Below are positions 11,678-32,913 of a DNA stretch of 64,000 nucleotides, piece by piece. The translations under genes were made by a program, and so were the position numbers. The notes beneath the pieces are model-generated. The model was given only the letters and a program-made list of their open reading frames with translations, was not told the origin of the DNA and made no database searches. Origin of the DNA: Acidobacteriota bacterium. GTDB taxonomy: Bacteria > Acidobacteriota > UBA6911 > RPQK01 > JAJDTT01. Positions within the stretch are counted from its first letter, which is position 1, and each line of letters starts with the position of its first letter. The stretch lies in the NCBI GenBank assembly GCA_965209055.1, contig OZ242374.1:4864001-4928000 (forward strand), read 5' to 3'.

Positions 11678-12001
11678 GTGTTTGATATATACGTGCCGGT
11701 ACATTTCGCTATGACATCCACCTTTTTGCACGCCGACTTCCTCCTTGCATTCGGCTTCATCTTCTTCCTGCTTCTAATCGTGCTGGTGTTGTGGATCGGG
11801 TTCCGGCGGCGACTCTCGGAAATCCAATCGGATCAGGAACAACAACGGGAACAGTTGGACGTCCTGGAGAACAAGATGGCACGGATAGAGGGCGCACTGT
11901 TCTATGGGCCGTCAGCGACGTGGACTATGGAGCACCGAGGGCAAGCTCCCGACCGGGCCACGACCCGTCCGAGCGATCCTCAGATCAGGAAGGATTTGTA
12001 A
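11678..12001 (+). CDS. Small membrane-anchored coiled-coil hypothetical protein
   Basis: One TM segment followed by ..LENKMARIEGAL; start uncertain. Confidence 0.5.
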   Translation: MFDIYVPVHFAMTSTFLHADFLLAFGFIFFLLLIVLVLWIGFRRRLSEIQSDQEQQREQLDVLENKMARIEGALFYGPSATWTMEHRGQAPDRATTRPSDPQIRKDL

Positions 12002-18197: not shown

Positions 18198-20447
18198 GTG
18201 CCTCAACCAAAGCATTACGCACACAGTGCGGAATCGGCTGCGCGAAACCGGTGGCACCCGCTGGCGAAGCATTTGGAAGACACGGCAGCGACCGCAAAAG
18301 AATTTCTCGCACCTGTGGTTGGAGGGGAATTCGGGTTCGCAGCCGGTCTACTACACGACCTTGGCAAGTACGCGCCGCGATTCCAGCGACGGCTCGACGG
18401 CGCAGGCCGTGTTGACCACGCCACGGCTGGCGCCAAAAAGGCGATCGGGCGTTACGGGGAGCTTCGCGGCAAAATGTTGGCATTCTGTATTGCCGGTCAT
18501 CATGCCGGCCTCGCCAACGGTGTGAATGGCCACAAAATCTCCGCCCTGGCAGACCGGCTCCAGAAGCAGGTTCCACGACTCGACCCGGTGTGGAACGAGG
18601 AGATCACATTTCCAGACTTACCAATACCATCCCTTAAGGCGCGTGATCGGGACAGCGCGGCCTTTTCCGCCTCCTTCTTCATCCGCATGGTGTTCTCCGC
18701 TCTTGTGGACGCGGACTTCCTGGACACGGAGGCGTACTACAATGCGCTGGCAGGAACTTCGAAGGCACGCGGGCAGCACCCGGAACTGCGAGAGTTGTCC
18801 GGGCGTCTCGATACATATCTCCAAACGCTTGGGTTGAGCGCAGAGCCCAGTGACGTGAACAGGCTGCGTCAAGAGGTGCTGATTTACGCCCGGAAGCAGG
18901 CAGCAAAGCCACCGGGCCTGTTCACTCTGACCGTTCCCACGGGAGGCGGCAAGACGCTGACCTCCCTTTCCTTCGCCCTGGACCACGCCGCGCGCCACGG
19001 GCTTGCGCGGGTCATCTACGTAATCCCTTACATGAGCATCATCGAACAGACGGCCGCCGTGTTTCGCGAGGCGCTCCGCGACGGCCCGACCGGTGCAGCG
19101 GACTTCGTTGTCGAACATCACAGCACCTTCGAAGATTGGCCCTATAGTCGGGAGGCGAAGGAAAAGCTGTTCCTGGCGATGGAAAACTGGGACGCCCCCA
19201 TCATCGTCACCACGGCCGTACAATTCTTTGAGAGCCTGTTCGCAAACCGCCCCGCACGCTGCCGCAAGTTGCACAACATCGCAAACAGCGTCATTGTCCT
19301 GGACGAAGCACAGACCCTGCCCTTGAAATATCTGCGTCCCTGCGTTGCCGCCCTCGACGAGTTGGCCCGTAACTGGCACGCGAGTGTCGTGCTCTGCACG
19401 GCTACACAGCCAGCCCTGGCAGAAACCTCCGGCTTCCGTGGAGGCCTGGAGAACCTGCGCGAGTTGGCCCCCGAGCCTCAGCTTCTCTACCAAACCCTGA
19501 AGCGCACACAGATTCGTAGTGTGGGACGGCTGGGCGACGCCGTACTCGCAGAACGGTTGCGTGATTCGCCGCAAGTCCTGTGCATCGTTAACACTCGGCG
19601 CCACGCCCGCGAGCTGTACGAAGCGCTCGGGGACATCGAGAACACCTTTCATCTGACCACCCTGATGTGTGCACACCATCGAAGGGAGCGACTCGACAGA
19701 GTACGTGTGCTCCTGAAGGAGGGGGCACCGGTGCGATTAGTCGCTACATCTCTCATCGAGGCCGGGGTCGATGTGGACTTCCCTGTCGTCTGGCGAGCAG
19801 AAGCGGGGTTGGAGTCGATTATCCAAGCCGCCGGACGGTGTAACCGCGAAGGTCGAGTACCCCTCGCTGACGTGTTCGTGTTCGAGCCGGAAGAAGGGGA
19901 AGGGCGCAAGCCCCCACCAGAGATCTGCCAGTTCGCAGCAGCGGCGCGTAGCGTCCTGAGCCGCCACGACGATCCCATGTCCCTGACGTCCATCGACGAC
20001 TACTTCCGGGAACTCTACTGGAGCAAGGGCAAAGATGCACTCGACGCCAAACACATCCTTCGGCAGCTACGTGAGCGTCGAACAACCCTAGACTTCCCCT
20101 TTGAGACTATCGCCCGGGAGTTTCGGTTGATCGAGACAGCCATGGAACCAGTGATTGTCCCCTATCGTGGCGCCAACTGCGACGCCCCAACCGTCGATCG
20201 CCTCCTCGAAAATCTGAAGTGGGTCGAGCGCCCGGGCCACATCGCACGCCTGCTTCAGCCCTATGTCGTAAATGTCCCATCTTCGGCAAGGGTGTCGCTG
20301 CTACGCGCCGGCGCCGCGCGGATCGTCCGGGAAGCCGATTTTGGTATGCAGTTTGTAGTTTTGACCAATATCGACCTTTACCACGAGGAACTTGGCTTGA
20401 TTTGGGATGATCCCACGTTCCTTAAGTTGGAAAGTCTTCTCATGTGA
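18198..20447 (+). CDS. cas3: Cas3 HD nuclease-helicase (type I-C)
   Basis: HDLGK, GHHAGL, LVDADFLDT, VPTGGGKT, DEAQ, QAAGRCNR. Confidence 0.96.
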   Translation: MPQPKHYAHSAESAARNRWHPLAKHLEDTAATAKEFLAPVVGGEFGFAAGLLHDLGKYAPRFQRRLDGAGRVDHATAGAKKAIGRYGELRGKMLAFCIAGHHAGLANGVNGHKISALADRLQKQVPRLDPVWNEEITFPDLPIPSLKARDRDSAAFSASFFIRMVFSALVDADFLDTEAYYNALAGTSKARGQHPELRELSGRLDTYLQTLGLSAEPSDVNRLRQEVLIYARKQAAKPPGLFTLTVPTGGGKTLTSLSFALDHAARHGLARVIYVIPYMSIIEQTAAVFREALRDGPTGAADFVVEHHSTFEDWPYSREAKEKLFLAMENWDAPIIVTTAVQFFESLFANRPARCRKLHNIANSVIVLDEAQTLPLKYLRPCVAALDELARNWHASVVLCTATQPALAETSGFRGGLENLRELAPEPQLLYQTLKRTQIRSVGRLGDAVLAERLRDSPQVLCIVNTRRHARELYEALGDIENTFHLTTLMCAHHRRERLDRVRVLLKEGAPVRLVATSLIEAGVDVDFPVVWRAEAGLESIIQAAGRCNREGRVPLADVFVFEPEEGEGRKPPPEICQFAAAARSVLSRHDDPMSLTSIDDYFRELYWSKGKDALDAKHILRQLRERRTTLDFPFETIAREFRLIETAMEPVIVPYRGANCDAPTVDRLLENLKWVERPGHIARLLQPYVVNVPSSARVSLLRAGAARIVREADFGMQFVVLTNIDLYHEELGLIWDDPTFLKLESLLM

Positions 20448-20489
20448 ATACTCTACAATCTCGCACACATTAGGATGATTTTCTACTAC

Positions 20490-20518
20490 ATGCACGAAGA
20501 ACAAAAATATGCCATACT
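20490..20518 (+). promoter_or_regulatory. Predicted sigma70-type promoter for the mini-array/hicA transcript
   Basis: ATGCAC-17 nt-CATACT with extended -10 TG at 20510-20511, ending 7 nt before the first degenerate repeat; predicted by eye. Confidence 0.45.
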
Positions 20519-20525
20519 TCCGAGT

Positions 20526-20624
20526 GTCGTTGGCCGACGAGAGCCAACGCGGGTTGAAACGTGCAAGTGGTGCGTTTGGTCGCAACGAGTCGTCCCCGGC
20601 TGCTCCGGGGGCGCGGATTATCCG
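20526..20624 (+). ncRNA. Cryptic CRISPR mini-array / crRNA-like RNA (two diverged I-C repeats, one 28-nt spacer)
   Basis: R1 GT-CGTTGGC-cgacgaga-GCCAACG-CGGGTTGAAAC (20526-20560); spacer GTGCAAGTGGTGCGTTTGGTCGCAACGA (20561-20588); R2 GT-CGTCCCCGG-ctgct-CCGGGGGCG-CGGATTATCCG (20589-20624). The array repeat is GT-CGCCCCC-ttacac-GGGGGCG-TGGATTGAAAC. Confidence 0.82.
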
Positions 20625-20672
20625 GTAGGACAACGAGGAAAGTGGATTTAGACCCAGCAGCCGGAATTTGCC

Positions 20673-20879
20673 GTGAAGGTTCGCGATGTCATACGCACGC
20701 TCAAGCAGCATGGGTTCCGATTGGACCGTCAATCCGGAAGCCACAGGCTGTTCGAAGGTGTGGCCGGCGGACGCCGCCGCATAGTGCCGGTACCCGGAAA
20801 GGATGGCGACGACGTTCGTGTAGGTACGTTGTCAGCAATCCGACGGCAATCCGGTCTGCCAAAGGCGCTGTTCCGCTAG
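20673..20879 (+). CDS. hicA: HicA-family mRNA interferase toxin
   Basis: 68 aa; KVRDVIRTLKQHGF..RQSGSHRLF...VPVP...GTLSAIRRQSGL, with the catalytic GSH intact. Confidence 0.9.
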   Translation: MKVRDVIRTLKQHGFRLDRQSGSHRLFEGVAGGRRRIVPVPGKDGDDVRVGTLSAIRRQSGLPKALFR

Positions 20880-21187
20880 GTAATCGCAGGAAGTTTATGG
20901 TGGAAGGAACGACCCTGAAAACAACCGGCCGCGCCTGGAACTCGAGACAACCACGTCATGAACGCGAGTTTTGCGCGAAGGTGCCATGGGGACTTGCGTG
21001 CCAAGAAATGGCTTTGTTCTTGGACCGGCAACTCGGCAACCCTCTCCAAGTAAAGTTCGATACAGACGGCGAGCGATTTCTTGACTTCGTCCAGAGACGG
21101 CGCGAACGTTGCGACATCCAAGTCGATGCAGATCGCTTCCCAATCATCACCGGAGGGGTACGCATAGCATTTGAGGTCAAGGGTCAC
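20876..21187 (-). CDS. hicB: HicB-like antitoxin, convergent on hicA
   Basis: RBS GGGAG plus GTG at 21187 (alternative ATG 21208); WEAICIDLDVATFAPSLDEVKKSL..IELYL is a HicB partial RNase H-fold pattern. Confidence 0.65.
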   Translation of the reverse strand: MTLDLKCYAYPSGDDWEAICIDLDVATFAPSLDEVKKSLAVCIELYLERVAELPVQEQSHFLARKSPWHLRAKLAFMTWLSRVPGAAGCFQGRSFHHKLPAIT

Positions 21188-21294
21188 ATTCGACTCCCTG
21201 GGTTCCATATGGTAAAGGGAGGCATCTACCATCAAAATACCAAAGGATGGCACCATATGCACGGAGTCGCAGCCCACGACGCCGAGAGGACCTT

Positions 21295-21966
21295 ATGCCA
21301 TACGGAGTGAAGTTGCACATTTGGGGTGACTACGCCTGCTTCACGCGACCCGAAATGAAGGTTGAGCGGGTGTCGTACGACGTGATAACACCTTCCGCGG
21401 CGCGCGGGGTCGTCGAAGCGATTCATTGGAAACCGGCCATCCGCTGGATGATCGACCGCATCCACGTCTTAAAACCGATCCGCTTTGAGAACCTCCGCCG
21501 CAACGAGTTGGGTCGAAAGATTCCAGCAGGCAGTGTCCTTCGGGCGATGAAACAAGGCAAGACGGAGGGACTTTACACCCTGATTGAGGACAACCGCCAG
21601 CAGCGGGCCACGACCCTGTTGCGCGACGTGGCCTACGTTATCGAAGCGCACTTCGTCCTCACTGAGGCCGCGACGTCTTGCGACACCGCAGCCAAGCATC
21701 TGTCCATGTTTAACCGACGTGCTTCCAAGGGCCAGTGCTTTCACCGACCCTATCTCGGTACCCGTGAATTCGCCGCCAACTTCGCGCCAGTGGAGGGCAT
21801 GATGCCAAAGTCAACGCTGCCTACCACTCAACAGGATCTCGATTTGGGCTGGATGTTGTACGACATCGACTTTGAAGATGATCGGTCCCCCCGTTTTTTC
21901 CGCGCCAAGCTGCAAAATGGCGTGATGGACGTGCCGCCGCTGGACTCCGAGGAAGTCAGGGCGTGA
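21295..21966 (+). CDS. cas5: Cas5c (Cas5d), type I-C
   Basis: GDYACFTRPEMKVERVSYDVITPSAARG, PYLGTREF, LGWMLYDIDF. Confidence 0.96.
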   Translation: MPYGVKLHIWGDYACFTRPEMKVERVSYDVITPSAARGVVEAIHWKPAIRWMIDRIHVLKPIRFENLRRNELGRKIPAGSVLRAMKQGKTEGLYTLIEDNRQQRATTLLRDVAYVIEAHFVLTEAATSCDTAAKHLSMFNRRASKGQCFHRPYLGTREFAANFAPVEGMMPKSTLPTTQQDLDLGWMLYDIDFEDDRSPRFFRAKLQNGVMDVPPLDSEEVRA

Positions 21967-23747
21967 GTATTCTTCAAGCTCTTGCCAGCCATTACAAACG
22001 CCTTCATGCAAATGGAGAAGCGCCAGATTACGGGTATTCCCGTGAGCCGGTTTCGTTTGCCATCGTGTTGTCGCCGGATGGTGAACCCGTCGATGTCATG
22101 GATTTGCGGGATCCATCAGGCAGGATGCCAAGGCCATCGCTCCGCGGGGTACCCCGACCCGTCACCCGCTCATCGAACATTGCCGCTAATTTCCTGTGGG
22201 ACAAGACCGCCTATACGCTCGGCATGAAGCGTGACCGCGACACGAAACAGCCGACGTCCGCAAGCCGCGAGCACGCTGCTTTCAGGAAGCTACACCAAGA
22301 ACTGCTCCCAGGGACAGGAGACGAGGGACTCAAAGCTCTACGCATCTTCTTGGAGCAATGGCAATCGGAGAATTACTCCAGCCTACGGCACGGAGACGAC
22401 ATGCTGGACGCGAACGTCATCTTTCGACTTGAGAGCGAACAGCGGTTCCTGCATCAGCGGCCAGCGGCACGAGGTATCTGGCAAGCCTATCTGGCAGGAA
22501 CAGACAAATCTCTAGGTCTCTGTCTTGTCTCAGGTGAGCAGGCACCGATCGAACGGCTTCACCCGAAGATCAAAGGCGTCAGAGGAGCGCAATCCTCTGG
22601 CGCGTCCATGGTCTCTTTCAACCTTGACGCCTTCGCATCGTTCGGCAAGAGGCAAGGCTCCAATGCCCCCGTGTCGAAACGAGCTGTCTTCTCCTATGCC
22701 ACCGCCCTGAACACGTTGCTGGCAAGGGACAGCGCGCGACGCATTCAGATCGGCGATGCGACGACGATCTTCTGGGCCGAGGCATCCGGCAACGAAGCGT
22801 GTGCCGCAACGGCGGAAGATTTGTTCTCGTTGCTTGCCGATCCGCCGACGGATGCGGAAGAAGCCATCAAGGTGGGAGACAAGCTCTTGGCGGTTGCGGA
22901 AGGTAAACCGCTGACCGCTGTCGAGCCAGAATTAGACGAGCACACAAGTTTCTACGTGCTTGGACTCGCTCCCAATGCGGCGCGCCTCTCGGTCCGTTTC
23001 TGGCATGTTGACAGCATCGGAGCGATTGCACGACAGATTGGCGAGCACTGGCGTGATCTGCTCATTGATCCGCTTCCCTGGACCACCCCGCCTGGCGCAT
23101 GGCGCCTGCTATACGAAACGGCCGTGCAGCGTAAATCTGAAAACATACCGCCAATCCTCGGTGGCGCGTTAATGCGTTCGATACTAACAGGTGGTCGTTA
23201 TCCCCGATCTCTACTTGCCGCCGTCGTGGCCCGAATGCGCGCCGAGGGAAACATCACGGCCCTCAGGGCAGCGATCTGTAAGGCATGTCTTGCCCGTGAC
23301 CACCGCCTGGGCTTCGAAATGGAGGATGTACCCGTGAGCCTGAACCCGGAAGAAACCAACCAAGCCTATCGCCTTGGAAGACTGTTTGCTTTGTACGAAG
23401 ACGTCCAACGTGCCGCCTTGGGCAATGTCAACTCGACGATCAAGGATCGCTATCTTGGGGCCGCTTCCGCCACCCCAGCATCGGTTTTCCCCTTGCTTGA
23501 GCGCAACTCCGCGAATCACCTTGCGACGCTCCGGAAAGGCAACAAAGGTGGTCTAGCCCATTGGTTTGAGCAACAGATCGACTCCATATTCGACGGTTTG
23601 GACGGGTCCTTTCCACGTAGTCTTCGTCTTGAGGATCAAGGACGTTTCGCGATCGGCTATCACCACCAGAGAGTCAAGAAACGAACCTCTTCAGACAAAG
23701 GAAGAGAAGGTACGGACGCCGAAACCCATGATGAGGAAGGACCATGA
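21963..23747 (+). CDS. cas8c: Cas8c/Csd1 large subunit
   Basis: [61 protein letters not shown]. Confidence 0.95.
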
Positions 23748-24676
23748 ACCCGATCAAACACCGCTATGACTTCGTTTATCTGTTCGATGTCACCAACGGG
23801 AATCCGAACGGCGACCCGGACGCGGGTAACCTGCCACGTCTTGACCCGGAGACCAATCAGGGGCTGGTTTCGGATGTCTGTCTGAAGCGCAAGGTGCGTA
23901 ACTTCGTCGCCTTGACCAAGGAAGACGCACCGGGCCACGAGATCTATGTCACCGAGCGTGCCATTCTTGAACTGCAGCAAAAGCGCGCCTGGGAAGCGAT
24001 TATCCCTGAAGCCACAGCCAAAGATCGGGAAAAGCTCCCCAAGGACCAGCAGAAAGCCCGTGAGATCACACGGTGGATGTGCGCTAACTTCTTTGATGTC
24101 CGTACATTCGGTGCAGTCATGTCAACGAGGGGCGCCAACTGCGGTCAAGTGCGCGGTCCGGTCCAGTTCTCGTTCGCGCGTTCGATCGATCCGATTCTCC
24201 CTTTGGAGGTCTCCATTACACGGATGGCTGCGACCACCGAAGCCGACGCCGAGTCCAAAGGCGACATCCGCACGATGGGCCGTAAGCACATCGTCCCCTA
24301 TGGCTTGTACCGCGCTCACGGTTACGTATCCGCTTGTCTCGCCGGGGGTGCTAAGGGTACCGGCTTCTCCGAGGAAGATCTTGCACTAGTCTGGTTGGCT
24401 CTCGAACAAATGTTCGATCATGATCGATCTGCGGCCCGTGGCGAGATGGCAGCACGGAGGCTGGTCCTGTTCGAGCATGAAACCGCACTCGGCAATGCGG
24501 CCGCCCACCGGTTATTCGAGCGCGTCGCGGTCAAGCGAGCATTCGACGGTAGAGAATACGAGCCCGGCGCGCGCGATGCTCGCCATCTGCCGCCAGCACG
24601 GGCCTACACCGACTATGCGGTCCACATCGACGAGACGGATTTGCCGAACGGGATAAAGATCATAGACCGGATCTGA
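23744..24676 (+). CDS. cas7: Cas7c/Csd2 backbone subunit
   Basis: [47 protein letters not shown]. Confidence 0.96.
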
Positions 24677-24680
24677 ATTG

Positions 24681-25316
24681 ATGGATGCGATCGAACCTGT
24701 CGCACAAGACGAATTGGTACCGATTTCGGCCCTGCAGCACATGCTCTACTGCCCGCGACAATGTGCGCTCATCCATGTCGAGCGGCACTGAGCCGAAAAC
24801 CGCTTTACTGCCGAAGGAAGCATCTTGCACCTGCGCCCCGACGCCGGAAGGGACGAACGCCGCCGCACCATACGAATCGAGCGCAGTGTTCCCCTCCGCT
24901 CTTCTCGGCTTGGTCTTTTCGGCGTGGCCGATGTAGTCGAGATGCATGCCGGCGGACGCATCTATCCGGTGGAGTACAAGCGCGGCCGGCCCAAGACTCA
25001 TCGTGCCGACGAAGTGCAACTCTGTGCGCAGGCAATTTGTCTAGAGGAAATGCTGGATGTCCCTGTTCTGGAGGGAGCCTTGTTCTATGGCCGCAGCCGG
25101 CGCCGTAAGGTGATCGTATTCGATGCTGGGCTGCGCGCGCTCACCGAAGCCGTCGCCGCCGATACGTGGAGCATGCTCGCCGCCGGCCGGACGCCACCAG
25201 CCGAGTTCGAAGCGCGCAAGTGCAACGCCTGCTCGCTCAAGGAAGCATGTCAGCCAGAGAGCCCCCGAGGGGCAGATGTCGTCGATCGCTGGCTGAGGCG
25301 CGCCGTCGAGGGCTGA
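24681..25316 (+). pseudogene. cas4: Cas4 with in-frame TGA at codon 37 (24789-24791)
   Basis: MDAIEP...[31 protein letters not shown]...DVVE..PVEYKRG..QLCAQ..C..CSL...C; TGA sits where W is expected. Confidence 0.9.
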
Positions 25317-25327
25317 TACAAAGTTCC

Positions 25328-26368
25328 ATGCGCCGTCACCTGAACACCCTGTACGTGACGACGGAAAACGCTTGGCTGCACAAGGATGGCGAGAATGCGG
25401 TGGTCAAGGTAGAGGGCTCAGAACGCGGCCGTGTACCCGTACATCTCCTCGGCGGCATCGTCTGTTTTGGTTCGATCGGACTGACGCCGCGACTGATCGG
25501 GCACTGCGCCGAACGCGGCGTTTGCATCTCACTGATGACCCGCTACGGCCGCTTTCTGGCTCGCGTCGAAGGCCCTGTCGCTGGAAACGTGCTTCTGAGG
25601 CGGAGTCAATATCGCGCCAGCGATGATGAGACCACCACCGTAACGCTGGTACGCAACTTGTTGACGGGAAAACTGCTCAATCAACGGACCGTAGTCCGGC
25701 GGGCGCTACGTGATCATGGCAAGAACATGCAGCCGGATGCACGCGCCCGCATGGAAGCCTGCGAGCGCCGACTGAGTGGTGCGGTGCGGCGCACGACTCG
25801 ATCAAAATCGACGAACGTACTGAGAGGAATCGAAGGAGACGCCGCGCGGACCTACTACAGCGTGTTCAATGATCTAGTATTGAGGACAGAATCAGCCTTC
25901 AGGTTCACAAACCGTTCGCGCCGACCGCCACTCGATCCAGTGAACGCTTTACTGTCGTTCGTTTATACCCTTCTGGTTCACGATTGCCGATCGGCCCTGG
26001 AAACTGTGGGGCTCGATCCCGCTGCGGGATTCTTGCATCGAGATCGTCCAGGTCGACCGGGCCTTGCGCTCGACCTCATGGAAGAGCTGCGGTCCGTAAT
26101 CGCTGACCGTCTGGTTCTATCGTTGATCAATCGCAAACAGATCTCGGCCAAAGATTTCACCACGGCAATCAGTGGGGCAGTCTCATTGCGAGACGATCCA
26201 CGGAAGGCGATTCTGGTCGCGTACCAAGCGCGAAAGAAAGATGAACTGACGCACCCGTTTCTCAAGGAAAAAATGATGCTCGGTATCGTCCCGTTCGTCC
26301 AAGCTACTCTGATGGCCCGGCGGTTGCGGGGTGACCTTGACGGCTATCCTCCGTTTCTCTGGAAGTAG
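25328..26368 (+). CDS. cas1: Cas1, type I-C
   Basis: LNTLYVTT, GNVLLRR.QY, RGIEG, RRPPLDPVNALLSF.Y, LALDLMEELR, YPPFLWK. Confidence 0.96.
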   Translation: MRRHLNTLYVTTENAWLHKDGENAVVKVEGSERGRVPVHLLGGIVCFGSIGLTPRLIGHCAERGVCISLMTRYGRFLARVEGPVAGNVLLRRSQYRASDDETTTVTLVRNLLTGKLLNQRTVVRRALRDHGKNMQPDARARMEACERRLSGAVRRTTRSKSTNVLRGIEGDAARTYYSVFNDLVLRTESAFRFTNRSRRPPLDPVNALLSFVYTLLVHDCRSALETVGLDPAAGFLHRDRPGRPGLALDLMEELRSVIADRLVLSLINRKQISAKDFTTAISGAVSLRDDPRKAILVAYQARKKDELTHPFLKEKMMLGIVPFVQATLMARRLRGDLDGYPPFLWK

Positions 26369-26377
26369 GGGGCAACA

Positions 26378-26668
26378 ATGTTGATGCTTATCACGTACGA
26401 TATTGCCACTGGAGAATCTGGAGGACAACGACGCTTACGTCGTGTCGCTCGGCTTTGTCAGGATCTCGGACAGCGGGTTCAGTACTCAGTGTTCGAGTGC
26501 CAAGTCGACCCGGCTCAATGGGCGATACTACGTTCCCGACTCATGAACGAAATCGACGAAAATGCCGATAGTCTTCGCTTTTACAGACTCGGCTCCAATT
26601 GGCGCTCGCGCATCGAACATGTGGGAAACAAGAAGTCCTACGATCCAGATGGACCACTCGTATTCTGA
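26378..26668 (+). CDS. cas2: Cas2
   Basis: LITYDI, RLRRVAR.C..GQRVQYSVFEC, DSLRFYRLG. Confidence 0.96.
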   Translation: MLMLITYDIATGESGGQRRLRRVARLCQDLGQRVQYSVFECQVDPAQWAILRSRLMNEIDENADSLRFYRLGSNWRSRIEHVGNKKSYDPDGPLVF

Positions 26669-26850: not shown

Positions 26851-29800
26851 GTCGCCCCCTTACACGGGGGCGTGGATTGAAACTCTGATATCAGAAACAC
26901 TTGCCAGGGGGCCTCTGGTCGCCCCCTTACACGGGGGCGTGGATTGAAACACCCCCGCGACCGCAGGCGACTGGTTCCCGAGGACGTCGCCCCCTTACAC
27001 GGGGGCGTGGATTGAAACTGCGTAATCTCCCCACGGGTGACCATCTGGTCCAGGTCGCCCCCTTACACGGGGGCGTGGATTGAAACCCGAATCTCCTGGC
27101 GAGTCCACGGCCGGCGCGCGGGTCGCCCCCTTACACGGGGGCGTGGATTGAAACACCTTCTGATAGATCGGGTCCGGCGCTTCCTCGAGTCGCCCCCTTA
27201 CACGGGGGCGTGGATTGAAACCTGCAACCGGATCAAGGGGAACCGGGGCATGGAGGTCGCCCCCTTACACGGGGGCGTGGATTGAAACACTCTGATGCTG
27301 GTAACTCTCAACGTCGTGTGGGGTCGCCCCCTTACACGGGGGCGTGGATTGAAACCAGGTAGGGGCCTCGTGGACGGCCCAATCATTCGCGTCGCCCCCT
27401 TACACGGGGGCGTGGATTGAAACACTCTGATGCTGGTAACTCTCAACGTCGTGTGGGGTCGCCCCCTTACACGGGGGCGTGGATTGAAACCAGGTAGGGG
27501 CCTCGTGGACGGCCCAATCATTCGCGTCGCCCCCTTACACGGGGGCGTGGATTGAAACAAAACGGCGTCTCCGAGTCCATCTCAGGGCTCCAGTCGCCCC
27601 CTTACACGGGGGCGTGGATTGAAACCGGCTCGTTGTTCGAATAACGAACCCGGTATTTCGGGTCGCCCCCTTACACGGGGGCGTGGATTGAAACTTGACG
27701 AGTCTCAAAAGATTCTGGCGGTGCCTACGTCGCCCCCTTACACGGGGGCGTGGATTGAAACCAGGCCATGAGCAATGCTCTGCCGTCCGAGGTCACGTCG
27801 CCCCCTTACACGGGGGCGTGGATTGAAACACCGACGCAATACTCTGTTCCACCAGGCCCAGTCGTCGCCCCCTTACACGGGGGCGTGGATTGAAACCTAC
27901 GTTATGAAGTCCTTGGGACGGTGCCGGCTCGTCGCCCCCTTACACGGGGGCGTGGATTGAAACTTGATAAACTTGGCCAGGCCCTTCTGCGCCGCCGGTC
28001 GCCCCCTTACACGGGGGCGTGGATTGAAACTGGCATGCGCTTGATCGTCGCGGACTGACTGCCCGTCGCCCCCTTACACGGGGGCGTGGATTGAAACAAC
28101 ACGGAGGGAGCATGACCGACGACAAGCACCGGGTCGCCCCCTTACACGGGGGCGTGGATTGAAACCTTGCGCTCGGCGAAGCTCTGCCGGCGCTGCCGGC
28201 GTCGCCCCCTTACACGGGGGCGTGGATTGAAACCTCGTGTCTTCCATGGCGCTCCTCCTCTGATGCGGTCGCCCCCTTACACGGGGGCGTGGATTGAAAC
28301 AGGAACAATATCCCGACGTTGATTGCCGCTCCGATGTCGCCCCCTTACACGGGGGCGTGGATTGAAACCAAGAGGAGAACCGCACCATGACACCTACCCC
28401 ACGTCGCCCCCTTACACGGGGGCGTGGATTGAAACAAACTGGAACCGGCGTACTGGCGAGCCGTCGAGCGTCGCCCCCTTACACGGGGGCGTGGATTGAA
28501 ACGATCGTCACCGCGGAGCGTGGCCTCCGAGCCCCGTCGCCCCCTTACACGGGGGCGTGGATTGAAACTCGCCGACAACGCCGCCACCGATCCCGACGAC
28601 GGGTCGCCCCCTTACACGGGGGCGTGGATTGAAACTCCAAGACCACCAAAGATAAGGTTTGTTCGGCCCGTCGCCCCCTTACACGGGGGCGTGGATTGAA
28701 ACATTGGTAAATTGAACTGCATCCCGAATGGCCCCGGGTCGCCCCCTTACACGGGGGCGTGGATTGAAACTACCGATTAAACCCTACTGCCCAGGGTGAA
28801 ACTAGTCGCCCCCTTACACGGGGGCGTGGATTGAAACACGGTATTTGCAAATCCGTTCAAATTTGCCAGCAGTCGCCCCCTTACACGGGGGCGTGGATTG
28901 AAACCATGCGGGTGTTGATTGCTTTTTGGTCAACCTGAGTCGCCCCCTTACACGGGGGCGTGGATTGAAACCCAATAGGGCTTGATCAATACAAATGGGT
29001 GAAACGTCGCCCCCTTACACGGGGGCGTGGATTGAAACACCCATATTTCGCTTGGCGAGGCGTGGATTCACGTCGCCCCCTTACACGGGGGCGTGGATTG
29101 AAACTCTATATTGGGCTCTCTTCGTCTCTGATATTCTCGTCGCCCCCTTACACGGGGGCGTGGATTGAAACACCGGAACGGGCGGGATATCACTTCGGAA
29201 TTCACGTCGCCCCCTTACACGGGGGCGTGGATTGAAACCAAGCTCTCTGCAATGGACGGTTGATCGAGGTCAAGTCGCCCCCTTACACGGGGGCGTGGAT
29301 TGAAACCCACCACGCTTCCCGTCGCCACCCGGGAATCGGCGGTCGCCCCCTTACACGGGGGCGTGGATTGAAACTCGGTTGTAGTCTCGATACTTGGCCA
29401 CCCCTTTCAGGTCGCCCCCTTACACGGGGGCGTGGATTGAAACACCCAAAAGATGGCCACGCAGGCTGGATTCTACGGGTCGCCCCCTTACACGGGGGCG
29501 TGGATTGAAACTCTGGCAGCGCGAAGAACCCATTGGGCCGCGTCGTGTCGCCCCCTTACACGGGGGCGTGGATTGAAACTCCAAGGGGCTGACAGCATTG
29601 AAAGTCGCCCTCGTGTCGCCCCCTTACACGGGGGCGTGGATTGAAACACGGAACCCTGTTTCATTGTATGAAAGGATGTAGTCGCCCCCTTACACGGGGG
29701 CGTGGATTGAAACCAAGAAGGGGCATATACCGGGCCGCGTTTTGAAGGTCGCCCCCTTACACGGGGGCGTGGATTGAAACAAATGAACAGGTAGCGGACC

Positions 29801-30452
29801 AAGCAAGAATGATTGTCGCCCCCTTACACGGGGGCGTGGATTGAAACAATATAAGGGTCTAGTTCCTTGCCCGTTCCAACCGTCGCCCCCTTACACGGGG
29901 GCGTGGATTGAAACGACCCGGAGGCCGCACGTGCCTAGAACACCGAAAGTCGCCCCCTTACACGGGGGCGTGGATTGAAACCGCTAAGAACGTGAAGGGC
30001 CTCCACGAGGTCACGTCGCCCCCTTACACGGGGGCGTGGATTGAAACGTCGATCGCTGTCCGTCGCACACGGGCTGAGGAGGTCGCCCCCTTACACGGGG
30101 GCGTGGATTGAAACGATCGTCCGGCTGTCGTCGTCGTCGCGCAGCACGTGTCGCCCCCTTACACGGGGGCGTGGATTGAAACAATTACGGGATTTCAGAG
30201 CACACTGGTCGGGCCGCGTCGCCCCCTTACACGGGGGCGTGGATTGAAACCCACAGACTGGTCAGATGATGCCATCAGCCCGTCGTCGCCCCCTTACACG
30301 GGGGCGTGGATTGAAACCAGCAGGAGGACGAACCATAACTGATTCCTCCAAGTCGCCCCCTTACACGGGGGCGTGGATTGAAACACTCTATTCCCCGCCA
30401 GGTACGGCGGGTCGAGGAAGTCGCCCCCTTACACGGGGGCGTGGATTGAAAC
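26851..30452 (+). CRISPR. Type I-C array, leader-proximal part: 54 repeats
   Basis: 33-bp repeat GTCGCCCCCTTACACGGGGGCGTGGATTGAAAC, spacers 33-36 bp (hand count). Confidence 0.98.
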
Positions 30453-30611
30453 TACACTTTGCGGAGCTGTCAATGGCCGTTGAAAATTGCACACTCTTGG
30501 CCTTCGAAAATTGCACACTTTTGGCCACTGAAAATTGCACAGGTCGCGGGAGCCCCCGTGGCGGTCGCTACGCTCCCTTCACGGGGGCTCCCGCGGCCGG
30601 ACCTGGTCCCC

Positions 30612-31433
30612 TCATGCCCCCCTCCTCCCCAAGCCCGATTCCTGGGCACTGACGGCTCGGGCGGCGGTCGGATGGATCGCCTTCGAGAGCTCCGCGTGGT
30701 GCCTCAACCGGTAGCTATTGCCTCGGATGTTGACGATGTGGCACCGGTGCAGGATCCGGTCCAGAAGCGCCGCCGCCATCACCTCGTCCCCCAAGATCTG
30801 GCCCCATTCCTCGAAGCCCTTGTTCGAGGTCAACACCGTCGAGGCCCGCTCGTAGCGCCGGTTCACCAGTTGGAAGAACAGCACCGCTCCGCTCTGGCTG
30901 ACCGGTAGGTAGCCGATCTCATCCACCACCAGGAGCGCCGGATGGGTCAGGGTCTTGAGCCGGTGGTTGAGCCGGCCCGCCGCTTTCGCTTCCTCCAACG
31001 AGTCAATCAGGTCCACCAACGTGCCGTAGTAGACCCGCCGACCACGCTCGGCCGCGGCGATCGCCAGGCTGATGGCCAAGTGCGTCTTTCCCACCCCGGG
31101 CGGACCCAGGAAGACGATGTTCTCCCGTCGCTTCACGAAGCCCAGCTCGTGCAGCGAGTCGATCTGCTCCCGCTTGATCGAAGGCTGGAAGCTGAAGTCG
31201 AACTCCGCGAGCGTCTTGATCGTCGGCAGTCGGCTGGAACGCATCGCCGCCTCCAGCCGCCGGCTGTTGCGCAGGGCGATCTGGGCCGCCAGGAGCCGTT
31301 CGATGGCTTCCGAGGCGGTGGTCCCTCCACCATCCACTCCGGAGAGTACGCTATCCAGGGCTTCCAGGGCACCCGGCATCTTCAGGTCCGCCAGCTGGGC
31401 GGCGATGCGCTCACGACGGGAAGGGAGGTTCAC
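30612..31433 (-). CDS. istB: IS21 helper ATPase IstB
   Basis: GPPGVGKTHLA, LLVVDEIGY, LTSNKGF, ALLDRILH, GNSYRL; GTGA overlap with the istA stop. Confidence 0.95.
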   Translation of the reverse strand: MNLPSRRERIAAQLADLKMPGALEALDSVLSGVDGGGTTASEAIERLLAAQIALRNSRRLEAAMRSSRLPTIKTLAEFDFSFQPSIKREQIDSLHELGFVKRRENIVFLGPPGVGKTHLAISLAIAAAERGRRVYYGTLVDLIDSLEEAKAAGRLNHRLKTLTHPALLVVDEIGYLPVSQSGAVLFFQLVNRRYERASTVLTSNKGFEEWGQILGDEVMAAALLDRILHRCHIVNIRGNSYRLRHHAELSKAIHPTAARAVSAQESGLGRRGA

Positions 31434-32470
31434 GACACCCCTCCCGTGAGGCGGGCATACTCGGTCAGGGGACGGCGCTCGACGTCCACCATACGCGGCC
31501 AGTTCGTCGCCGGTACCGGAGTTGCCGACGGCTTCGGCAGTGGAACCACAGTGGAGTGGTAAGGCCAAGTGGCCAAAGGAGTTAGAGTCTCACGCTCCCG
31601 CTCGAACCGGTCCACGGGCCGTTCCTTGAGCGTCCCGTGGTTGCGGACATTGGCCTCTTCGTCCCGCCACTTCCGAGCCCGGGCGTTGAGATCGGTGTCC
31701 GAGACGAAGTCCCGGCCATAGAAGAAACTCTCCCGAATGTAGCGGACCGGCCGCTCCACCTTCCCCTTCGTCTGAGCTCGATAGGGTCGGCAGGCCCGCA
31801 CCCGAAAACCCCAGTGGCGGCTGAAGCGAACGAACTCCCGGTTCTCGATCAACCGTCCGCCCTCTTCGCGCCCATCCCGGACGATGACCGCCTTCATCTG
31901 GTCGAACAGAAGTTCCCCAGGGACACCCCCGAAGTAAGTGAACGAGGCCTCCAGGCCCCGCATCACCACCGGCATCGTCTTGCGCTCGTAGTACCGAAAC
32001 CACAACAACCGGGAGTAGCCCAGCACCACGATCAGGGCGTACCGCTTGCCCCACGGCAACCGGAAATCCGCAAAGTCCACTTGCCCTTGGTGCCCCGGAG
32101 GGGTCTCGAACCGTTGGACCGGTTCCTGGACCACCCGCGGCCGCACTTGGCGAACGTAGCGCTTCACCTGTCCGTAGGCCCCGGGATAACCCGCCTTCCG
32201 GACTTCCCGGAACAGCCGCGTCGCCGTCAACTTCGGATACTCGGCCAGACGAGCGTCGATGATCGCCTTGTACGGATCCAGCTTCGACCGCACAGACCGC
32301 CTCGGTCCGTACTGGGCCGGTTCCTCCTTCTCTCCCCGGTTCAACTGGCCCGTCTTGATCCAGTAGTAGACCGTCCGCCGGCTGACTCCCAACTGCCGCG
32401 CGATGGCGGCCTTGATCATTCCTTGCTCCAGATAGTGTCGCAGCAGCACCCTCTTGTCGCTCCCAAACAT
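31430..32470 (-). CDS. istA: IS21 transposase IstA
   Basis: N-terminal HTH, SKLDPY, RFETPPG.QGQVDF, FDQMK, CRPYRAQTKGKVER. Confidence 0.95.
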   Translation of the reverse strand: MFGSDKRVLLRHYLEQGMIKAAIARQLGVSRRTVYYWIKTGQLNRGEKEEPAQYGPRRSVRSKLDPYKAIIDARLAEYPKLTATRLFREVRKAGYPGAYGQVKRYVRQVRPRVVQEPVQRFETPPGHQGQVDFADFRLPWGKRYALIVVLGYSRLLWFRYYERKTMPVVMRGLEASFTYFGGVPGELLFDQMKAVIVRDGREEGGRLIENREFVRFSRHWGFRVRACRPYRAQTKGKVERPVRYIRESFFYGRDFVSDTDLNARARKWRDEEANVRNHGTLKERPVDRFERERETLTPLATWPYHSTVVPLPKPSATPVPATNWPRMVDVERRPLTEYARLTGGVS

Positions 32471-32678
32471 AACGTCTCCTCCTCTCGGTAGAGACGCTAG
32501 GTAACAAAATCTCGCCCCCGCGGCGAACTTCTCGAGAACCTCCTTGTGGCTCCCCCCTAAAAGCCTCTTCAGGAACCAAAAGTGTGCAATTTTCCATGGC
32601 CACATCTGCGCAACTTTCGACGGCCACATCTGTGCAATTTTCCATGGCCGCCAACAACTGGCCGCAAAAAAGACGGAC

Positions 32679-32913
32679 GTCGCCCCCTTACACGGGGGCG
32701 TGGATTGAAACAGCCGGTCCAAGGGATTCAAGGTGCGCGCCACAGGTCGCCCCCTTACACGGGGGCGTGGATTGAAACCTATGTAGCGCCTGGGGGTACT
32801 GACGCATAAGAAGTCGCCCCCTTACACGGGGGCGTGGATTGAAACTATGTGAATGAGTACAACGTCCGGCGGTTGTACGGGTCGCCCCCTTACACGGGGG
32901 CGTGGATTGAAAC
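32679..32913 (+). CRISPR. Type I-C array, distal part: 4 repeats
   Basis: Identical repeats at 32679, 32746, 32813 and 32881. Confidence 0.97.

Follow-up and report, generated by a model that had tools for sequence, protein, structure and literature searches.

A mini-CRISPR array ahead of hicA in a type I-C CRISPR-Cas locus, and its partial match to its own putative promoter

In several CRISPR-Cas systems, guides derived from degenerate mini-arrays direct the effector complex, Cascade, to promoters within the same locus. Here we describe a mini-array that precedes a gene for a HicA toxin in a complete type I-C CRISPR-Cas system of an Acidobacteriota bacterium, and whose spacer partially matches, next to a TTC protospacer-adjacent motif (PAM), a putative promoter just upstream of the mini-array itself. 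The system lies in a stretch of 64,000 nucleotides (assembly GCA_965209055.1, contig OZ242374.1, positions 4,864,001 to 4,928,000 of the forward strand), which as a whole is called the window below; coordinates are positions in it. Its cas3-cas5c interval holds the mini-array, then hicA, then, on the opposite strand, a convergent hicB-like gene.

Type I-C itself provides a precedent. Shu et al. described Nezha, Gabija and eight "CRISIS" systems, supported by small-RNA sequencing, primer extension and a 4.8- to 60-fold repression of gfp; their regulatory targets carry a TTC or TTA PAM, and mismatches fall at positions 6 and 12 (10.1101/2024.12.27.630466). The locus in the window is likewise of type I-C, has its cargo in the slot between cas3 and cas5c, and has a TTC-flanked target just past cas3, right before the cargo and at its putative promoter. 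In the CRISIS loci the repeat unit comes after the cargo, immediately before cas5c, whereas in the window it stands between promoter and cargo, adjoining the promoter; and the CRISIS cargo is an anti-phage system, not hicA with a convergent hicB-like gene.

In the CreTA module of Halobacterium hubeiense (type I-B), CreA represses PcreTA, the promoter of the operon to which it belongs (Cheng et al. 2021, PMC8501985). The module resembles the present case in its mini-CRISPR of two pseudo-repeats, in the placing of guide and toxin in one transcription unit, and in seed pairing at positions 1-5 and 7-11 beside a TTC PAM in its own promoter, where Cascade represses without cutting. It differs in being archaeal and of type I-B, in its toxin, a small RNA that sequesters a tRNA, in the order of genes (creT before creA) and in having no protein antitoxin. 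CrePA of Acinetobacter baylyi ADP1 (type I-F) does control a protein toxin, repressed jointly by a crRNA-like (CRISPR RNA-like) antitoxin and the effector complex; this module is also situated between cas3 and the effector genes, with creA upstream of the toxin gene (10.1101/2024.01.05.574328). Its toxin, CreP, is however a phage-derived inhibitor of cell division, and creA has its own promoter and targets a separate creP promoter between both genes. CreR guides autoregulate cas genes, as tested in types I-B, I-E and V-A (Liu et al., 10.1101/2023.03.10.532045), and include no toxin; with the mini-arrays surveyed by Shmakov et al. (2023, PMC10120712) they share with our locus a degenerate mini-array in a cas intergenic region and a partial, PAM-flanked promoter match. 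That survey found toxin-antitoxin genes enriched between mini-arrays and cas genes, in types I-B, I-E, I-F1 and I-D, its toxin-antitoxin cargo cases being of type I-D; type I-C figures in a table only, with a mini-array in 7% of loci.

The mechanism considered below is thus of a known kind, and it is the cargo, HicA with a convergent HicB-like protein, and the position of the guide ahead of that cargo and against the promoter that differ from known cases. HicA is not mentioned in the texts on CreTA, CrePA, CreR, mini-arrays and type I-C CRISIS, and among the literature found on CreTA together with HicA the only relevant-looking topic was a Cas13a-activated HicAB. We found no HicA cargo behind such a guide in print, although the supplementary tables of PMC10120712 and 10.1101/2024.12.27.630466 may list such loci.

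The mini-array is located upstream of hicA, 672 nt ahead of cas5c, on the plus strand. It begins with a degenerate repeat, psiR1 (20526-20560), which has a hairpin and a 3' end resembling a crRNA 5' handle, and continues with a psi-spacer of 28 nt (20561-20588, GTGCAAGTGGTGCGTTTGGTCGCAACGA), against 33-36 nt for the spacers of the regular array. A second degenerate repeat, psiR2 (20589-20623), has kept the hairpin and lost the 3' end (GGATTATCC). Both repeats open with GTCG, and psiR1 ends in GGGTTGAAAC, compared with GGATTGAAAC in the repeat of the 58-copy array. Predicted hairpin energies are -11.7 kcal/mol for psiR1, -18.2 for psiR2 and -15.7 for the canonical array repeat, the z-scores of the two pseudo-repeats being modest (-1.4 and -1.9). 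The unit therefore has the make-up of a crRNA-like regulatory RNA, that is, two degenerate copies of the system's own repeat with hairpins in both and a handle in the first. Within the genus, the psiR1 pattern occurs in only two genomes (G000 and G006), and a search of metagenomes with a psiR1 pattern returned 6 contigs, none of which contained a mini-array. Contigs from four metagenome runs, compared with 20000-21600, left 20486-20701 uncovered in every case.

The target proposed for this guide lies 66 nt upstream of the spacer. The plus strand at 20485-20498 reads ACTACATGCACGAA; on the minus strand, the TTC PAM (20496-20498, GAA on the plus strand) is followed by the seed part of the protospacer, GTGCATGTAGT, whose positions 1-11 run from 20495 down to 20485. 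The start of the spacer, GTGCAAGTGGT, pairs with it at positions 1-5, 7, 8, 10 and 11. Position 6 is mismatched, and at position 9 a spacer G faces a protospacer A, with T on the target strand, so that an rG:dT wobble may form. The initial annotation of this DNA had described this match and the possible wobble, and it is exact to the base. Pairing does not extend past position 11 in the window; the footprint of a full 28-nt protospacer would span 20468-20495.

Judged by frequency, the site is singular in the window and ordinary in the genome. Among the 2381 TTC sites of the window, only the minus-strand site at 20498 matches at nine of the ten counted seed positions, one other site reaches 8/10 and 14 reach 7/10; with any PAM allowed, there are five 9/10 sites in the 64 kb. 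In the whole genome (6.08 Mb), 9 of 229,523 TTC sites score 9/10 and none 10/10, so that the window copy taken alone is weak evidence. When 11-mers were drawn at random from the locus, 4 out of 5000 scored at least 9/10 within the 150 nt before psiR1, a count that includes draws of the target site itself.

Stronger evidence comes from homologous loci. A scan for Cas5c, limited to one genome per species, yielded 80 type I-C loci, seven of which have hicA between cas3 and cas5c (L041, L043, L045, L047, L049, L050 and L052). L047 and L049 are the same in the cas3-cas5c region, so that six distinct loci remain besides that of the window. Their sources are metagenome-assembled genomes (MAGs) labelled Acidobacteriota, Alphaproteobacteria, Pseudomonadales and Gammaproteobacteria and one unclassified bacterium, and the gene order in all distinct ones is cas3, mini-array, hicA, convergent hicB-like gene, cas5c. 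Both strands of each whole locus were scanned, regardless of PAM, for the sequence that best matches the local spacer other than the spacer itself. In four loci this best match lay upstream of the spacer, flanked by TTC on the minus strand, at the place homologous to the window site: in L043 with pairs at 1-5 and 7-16 (70 nt from the spacer); in L050 at 1-5, 7-13 and 15-16 (62 nt); in L045 at 1-5, 7-11 and 13-15 (58 nt); and in L052 at 1-5 and 7-15 (58 nt). A guide-target pair is thus present in five of the seven distinct loci, the window counted, and position 6 is unpaired in all five. In L052, the mini-array is duplicated by a stretch around 2594-2770 made up of N and of low-complexity G/A sequence, probably a scaffolding artefact, and only the first copy with its upstream region was used.

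The initial annotation had suggested looking for spacer-target covariation in homologous loci, and compensated changes are indeed found at four positions. At position 1 the window has G:G where L045 and L052 have A:A, and at position 4 C:C of L043 contrasts with T:T of L050. L045 and L052 differ from each other at position 7 (T:T against G:G) and at position 14 (T:T against C:C). When spacers and upstream regions were swapped, all five spacers scored best on their own upstream region (9-10), reached 9 within their own clade and did not exceed 8 in other clades. Because the window site occupies the place at which the longer, covarying matches occur, it is to be regarded as a homologue of co-evolving Cascade targets and not as a coincidence; judging from these comparisons, it very probably descends from a real Cascade target.

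Distribution along the Cas5c tree (27 loci) indicates with what the guide is inherited. The seven hicA loci fall within one clade of 13 (SH-aLRT, Shimodaira-Hasegawa-like approximate likelihood ratio test, 82), and the other six members of this clade have a cas3-cas5c gap without hicA, mini-array or guide-target pair. With seven loci having both and six having neither, the guide travels with hicA and the hicB-like gene and not with cas5c. Close taxonomic kin are of little use in this respect, since in the same order Cas5c was matched in only 3 of 76 genomes. A syntenic locus was found in a single other genome of the genus, G006, whose locus is L041 (an Acidobacteriota MAG, 76% DNA identity). 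Against 60-65% identity in neighbouring non-coding DNA, psiR1 agrees between the two genomes at 29 of 35 positions and the spacer seed at 9 of 11, whereas the target seed (7/11) and psiR2 (21/35) do not rise above these surroundings; psiR2 of G006 has lost its repeat-like fold. The cas3 gene of G006 aligns in two frames (residues 1-231 and 232-749, the break being near 11702 of the reverse-complemented 31-kb stretch of G006:C12), owing to a frameshift or an assembly error, and its cas5c has one in-frame TAA in the extended frame.

The putative promoter core in the window (plus strand, 20490-20518) consists of ATGCAC (20490-20495), a 17-nt spacer and CATACT (20513-20518), with TG at 20510-20511 and the complement of the PAM within the 17-nt spacer; a transcript from it would be expected to start at about 20524-20526. 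The PAM complement GAA stands 22-28 nt ahead of psiR1 in all five matched loci, which is enough for a core of -35, 17-18 nt, -10 and start. Immediately before GAA, a -35-like hexamer is found in L045 (TTGCAT), L052 (TTGCAT) and the window (ATGCAC), followed after 17 nt by the -10-like hexamers TAAACT, TACACT and CATACT, which end up 5-8 nt ahead of psiR1. In L043 and L050, TTGCAA lies within the protospacer, and TACTGT or TTCTGT follows 17-18 nt downstream (TTGCAA-18-TACTGT in L043). Given this conserved geometry, the protospacer would span the -35 together with adjoining upstream DNA, and transcription would begin just before psiR1. A start at that point had been predicted for the window alone, and the spacing across the five loci agrees with it.

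Taken together, these observations make it likely that the mini-array specifies a crRNA-like guide which docks on the promoter of its own, hicA-bearing transcript. Transcription would set in a few nucleotides ahead of psiR1, ATGCAC (20490-20495) being the -35 of its promoter. Cas5c would cut the transcript within psiR1 and psiR2, releasing a guide of about 60 nt, and Cascade loaded with it would recognise the TTC at 20498-20496 and pair at positions 1-5 and 7-11, with G:T at 9. Pairing of this length would presumably neither form a full R-loop nor allow Cas3 to cut; bound Cascade would cover the -35 and upstream DNA and in this way hold down its own transcript, hicA included. If Cascade were to disappear, to be titrated away by other crRNAs or to be inhibited by an anti-CRISPR, the promoter would open and HicA would rise. 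Negative autoregulation of the mini-array/hicA transcript by Cascade was the interpretation already offered in the initial annotation, and the longer TTC-flanked, covarying matches of L043, L045, L050 and L052 support it. Beyond that interpretation, the transcript may run on into cas5c-cas8c-cas7c. As every other member of the set pairs more strongly than the window does, repression in this genome may be partial; the window site may well still be at work.

The hicA gene (20673-20879, plus strand) starts with GTG and codes for 68 amino acids matching the HicA_toxin family (PF07927, E = 1.5e-16, 60.7 bits against a cut-off of 27). Across nine sequences G22 and H24 are invariant, the latter being presumably the catalytic histidine, and relatives at 94% and 90% identity occur in metagenome assemblies (P0001, P0002). 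The hicB-like gene (20876-21208, minus strand; 110 amino acids from ATG 21208) overlaps the hicA stop with its own stop. Its open reading frame is kept in nine loci, and a by-eye comparison with L041, in which only one of the differing codons upstream of ATG 21208 is synonymous, suggests that the gene starts at this ATG.

For the HicB-like protein, none of nine members matched Pfam at E <= 1, a comparison with PDB sequences gave no match, and no DNA-binding domain was found; PADLOC models matched neither this protein nor HicA. The AlphaFold model (predicted local distance difference test, pLDDT, 74) had no Foldseek fold match at E <= 0.001. Five of its 14 top-ranked PDB fold matches (3kwr, 2yzt, 4p7d, 4p78 and 3k6q) are HicB-family or HicAB structures, with template-modelling (TM) scores of 0.28-0.40 and none significant. 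A model of the complex with HicA scored 0.56, against 0.00 for the best of three controls, and lends weak support to an interaction; its runs share at least 94% of their contacts, with a partner pLDDT of at least 56. For scale, 58 of 80 solved complexes pass the mark applied to such scores, as do 2 of 110 mismatched pairs; scores of at most 0.60 belong to only 7 of these 80 and to both mismatches. HicAB complexes have been solved before, so likeness to them may contribute to the score. The pair resembles type II HicAB modules in its PF07927 toxin and in the conserved small neighbouring gene, and differs from them in that the genes converge with overlapping stops and form no single operon, and in that none of the HicB models matches the partner.

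Elsewhere in the genus, outside any CRISPR locus, hicA and a hicB-like gene also converge with overlapping stops, namely at L005 (G008) and L006 (G001). Their HicA is about 70% identical, they have no mini-array and their upstream region is different, while the 5' leader of hicA in the window, GGAAAGTGGAT, recurs at these stand-alone pairs. One further, partial hicA/hicB-like copy is present in the window's own genome (L008, G000:C1:3534616-3537802). At L003 (G005) and at L004/L009 (G007), hicA is truncated or broken, with only residues 29-68 aligning, and the hicB-like gene is intact.

Several observations weigh against Cascade control of hicA in this genome. The initial annotation had named ATGCAC-17-CATACT with an extended -10 as a promoter; the hexamers and the TG are present, but a consensus promoter scan of 20300-21400 called none, and ATGCAC agrees with TTGACA at only two of six bases. 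Eight further TTC sites in the genome equal the window site in their match. The pairing in the window is weaker than in the four other matched loci and includes a non-Watson-Crick position within the seed, and in the type I-B system of H. hubeiense a change of any one of 10 seed bases abolished repression (PMC8501985). L047 has no match in the PAM-blind scan of its whole locus. The spacer of L041 has no PAM-flanked match anywhere in 31 kb; its best TTC-flanked score in the 150 nt before psiR1 is 5/10, and the bases aligned with the window site, TCC followed by GTCCATGTGAC, agree with its own spacer at 6 of 10 counted positions when read by eye. Since hicA and the hicB-like gene are intact in L041 and L047 despite the missing guide match, Cascade control is evidently not needed for their survival there.

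Part of this evidence would suit a circuit that worked in an ancestor and no longer represses, HicA now being restrained solely by the HicB-like protein. On that account one expects what is seen, the shortest pairing of the five, with nine Watson-Crick pairs and none past position 11, and a sister locus without a match, with a psiR2 that has lost its repeat-like fold and cas3 spread over two frames; the sensitivity of type I-B repression to single seed changes and the stand-alone pairs that do without a mini-array point the same way. We nevertheless consider such a relic unlikely, because the lone seed departure in the window, G:T, is the mildest possible, the PAM, psiR1 and the spacer seed are better conserved than the non-coding DNA around them, and the cas genes and the 58-repeat array are intact. 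A mere chance match, with the mini-array aimed at a target absent here or located elsewhere, is very improbable. Only nine bases pair, the nine equal TTC sites of the genome are about as many as expected, and L041 has no match; yet the site is homologous in place to the longer covarying TTC-flanked matches of four other loci, and the local probability is at most 4 in 5000. The reservation in the initial annotation that so short a match might be accidental is accordingly disfavoured.

The functional target might also lie elsewhere in the interval. Between the start of the hicB-like gene (21208) and cas5c (21295), 86 nt apart, the minus strand contains a second partial spacer match, TCC followed by GTGCATATGGTGC (21265-21250), through which the guide would control the hicB-like gene, cas5c or both. 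It pairs at positions 1-5 and 8-13, with G:T possible at 7, and lies in a divergent region beside a conserved minus-strand TGGTAGA. This motif, plus-strand TCTACCA(C/T) or approximately so, was recognised by eye in the same gap of seven loci (the window, L041, L043, L045, L047, L050 and L052), and its minus-strand form, (A/G)TGGTAGA, could be the extended -10 of the hicB-like gene. However, the PAM is TCC, where published type I-C regulatory targets have TTC or TTA, a mismatch falls within the seed, a counterpart of at least 9/10 is missing from that place in all six other loci, and the aligned bases of L041 do not match; we hold this second site to be a quite improbable target.

A different view concerns not the site but the purpose of the control. 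The promoter at 20490-20518 might be that of the Cascade operon, with the mini-array and hicA merely in its leader, so that the circuit would be a CreR-like autoregulation of Cascade; this is compatible with repression of hicA by the same guide. The wider type I-C set bears on this. Of 40 loci that lack hicA and whose cas3 and cas5c lie at least 130 nt apart, 23 carry a handle-adjacent spacer for which there is an upstream TTC-flanked match of at least 9/10, compared with 2/40 for reversed and 0-2/40 for shuffled spacers. In 21 of the 23 the spacer begins 66-146 nt before cas5c and the target is near the cas3 stop, the same pattern as in the systems of Shu et al. (10.1101/2024.12.27.630466). 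No terminator is predicted within 20300-21400, and the hicB-like start lies only 86 nt from cas5c. On the other side, a transcript reaching cas5c would have to cross the convergent hicB-like gene, and the six nearest hicA-less relatives have no mini-array, which associates the guide with hicAB rather than with cas5c. We therefore see the Cascade operon as a possible but somewhat doubtful object of the control, and Cascade docking on the promoter of the hicA-bearing transcript stays our preferred reading.

Two of the hicA-less loci have whole defence systems between target and mini-array. In L081 (276-3489), SIR2 and HerA genes separate a target just after cas3 from a mini-array just before cas5c; in L075 (1177-3501), a 458-amino-acid ATPase and a 197-amino-acid partner (PD-T4-4 A and B) take this place. 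They were considered as new cargoes and rejected as such, being already published as Nezha and most likely Erlang (10.1101/2024.12.27.630466).

The remainder of the type I-C system is encoded on the plus strand. The cas3 gene (18198-20447) codes for 749 amino acids with HD and helicase parts (Pfam DEAD, Cas3-like_C_2 and Cas3_HD). Downstream of the cargo follow cas5c (21295-21966, Cas_Cas5d), cas8c (21963-23747, Cas_Csd1), cas7c (23744-24676, Cas_Cas7) and, also assigned by Pfam, cas4 (24825-25316), cas1 (25166-26368) and cas2 (26378-26668). The cas4 open reading frame, of 163 amino acids, aligns only to positions 55-159 of the 160-position Cas4 profile; its real start may be further upstream, or the gene may be truncated. 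The array (26851-32913) has 58 repeats of 33 nt and is broken between two repeats by an insertion of 2226 nt (30470-32650), which encodes an IstB_IS21 ATPase on the minus strand (30612-31568) and is bounded on either side by three tandem 24-nt repeats (30474-30545 and 32576-32649), inverted at one end with respect to the other; it resembles an IS21-family element. A search of 20300-21400 with Rfam gave no family at gathering score.

Apart from its cargo and wiring, the locus would add one more example to a mechanism that has been demonstrated in systems of types I-B, I-C, I-E, I-F and V-A. A bolder and rather improbable reading is that guide, HicA and convergent antitoxin gene form one switch, and that such loci constitute an undescribed class of CRISPR-guarding modules spread across several phyla. 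Active Cascade would shut the single promoter; its loss, or its inhibition by an anti-CRISPR, would release HicA together with a burst of transcription antisense to the hicB-like gene, flipping the toxin-to-antitoxin ratio and leading to dormancy or abortive infection, and the cut of Cas5c at psiR2 would set the 5' end of the hicA mRNA. The five naturally varied and mutually compensated guide-target pairs offer a ready mutational series for the minimal pairing required by type I-C Cascade, and the window version, with nine pairs and a G:T, together with the two match-less loci that keep hicA and the hicB-like gene, illustrates how such a circuit may decay. If the proposed control is true, the principle that CRISPR supervises its neighbours would be extended to a classical type II toxin family, HicA. 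Its wiring would be extended as well, to a guide at the extreme 5' end of the transcript that it represses and a putative antitoxin gene transcribed towards that guide.

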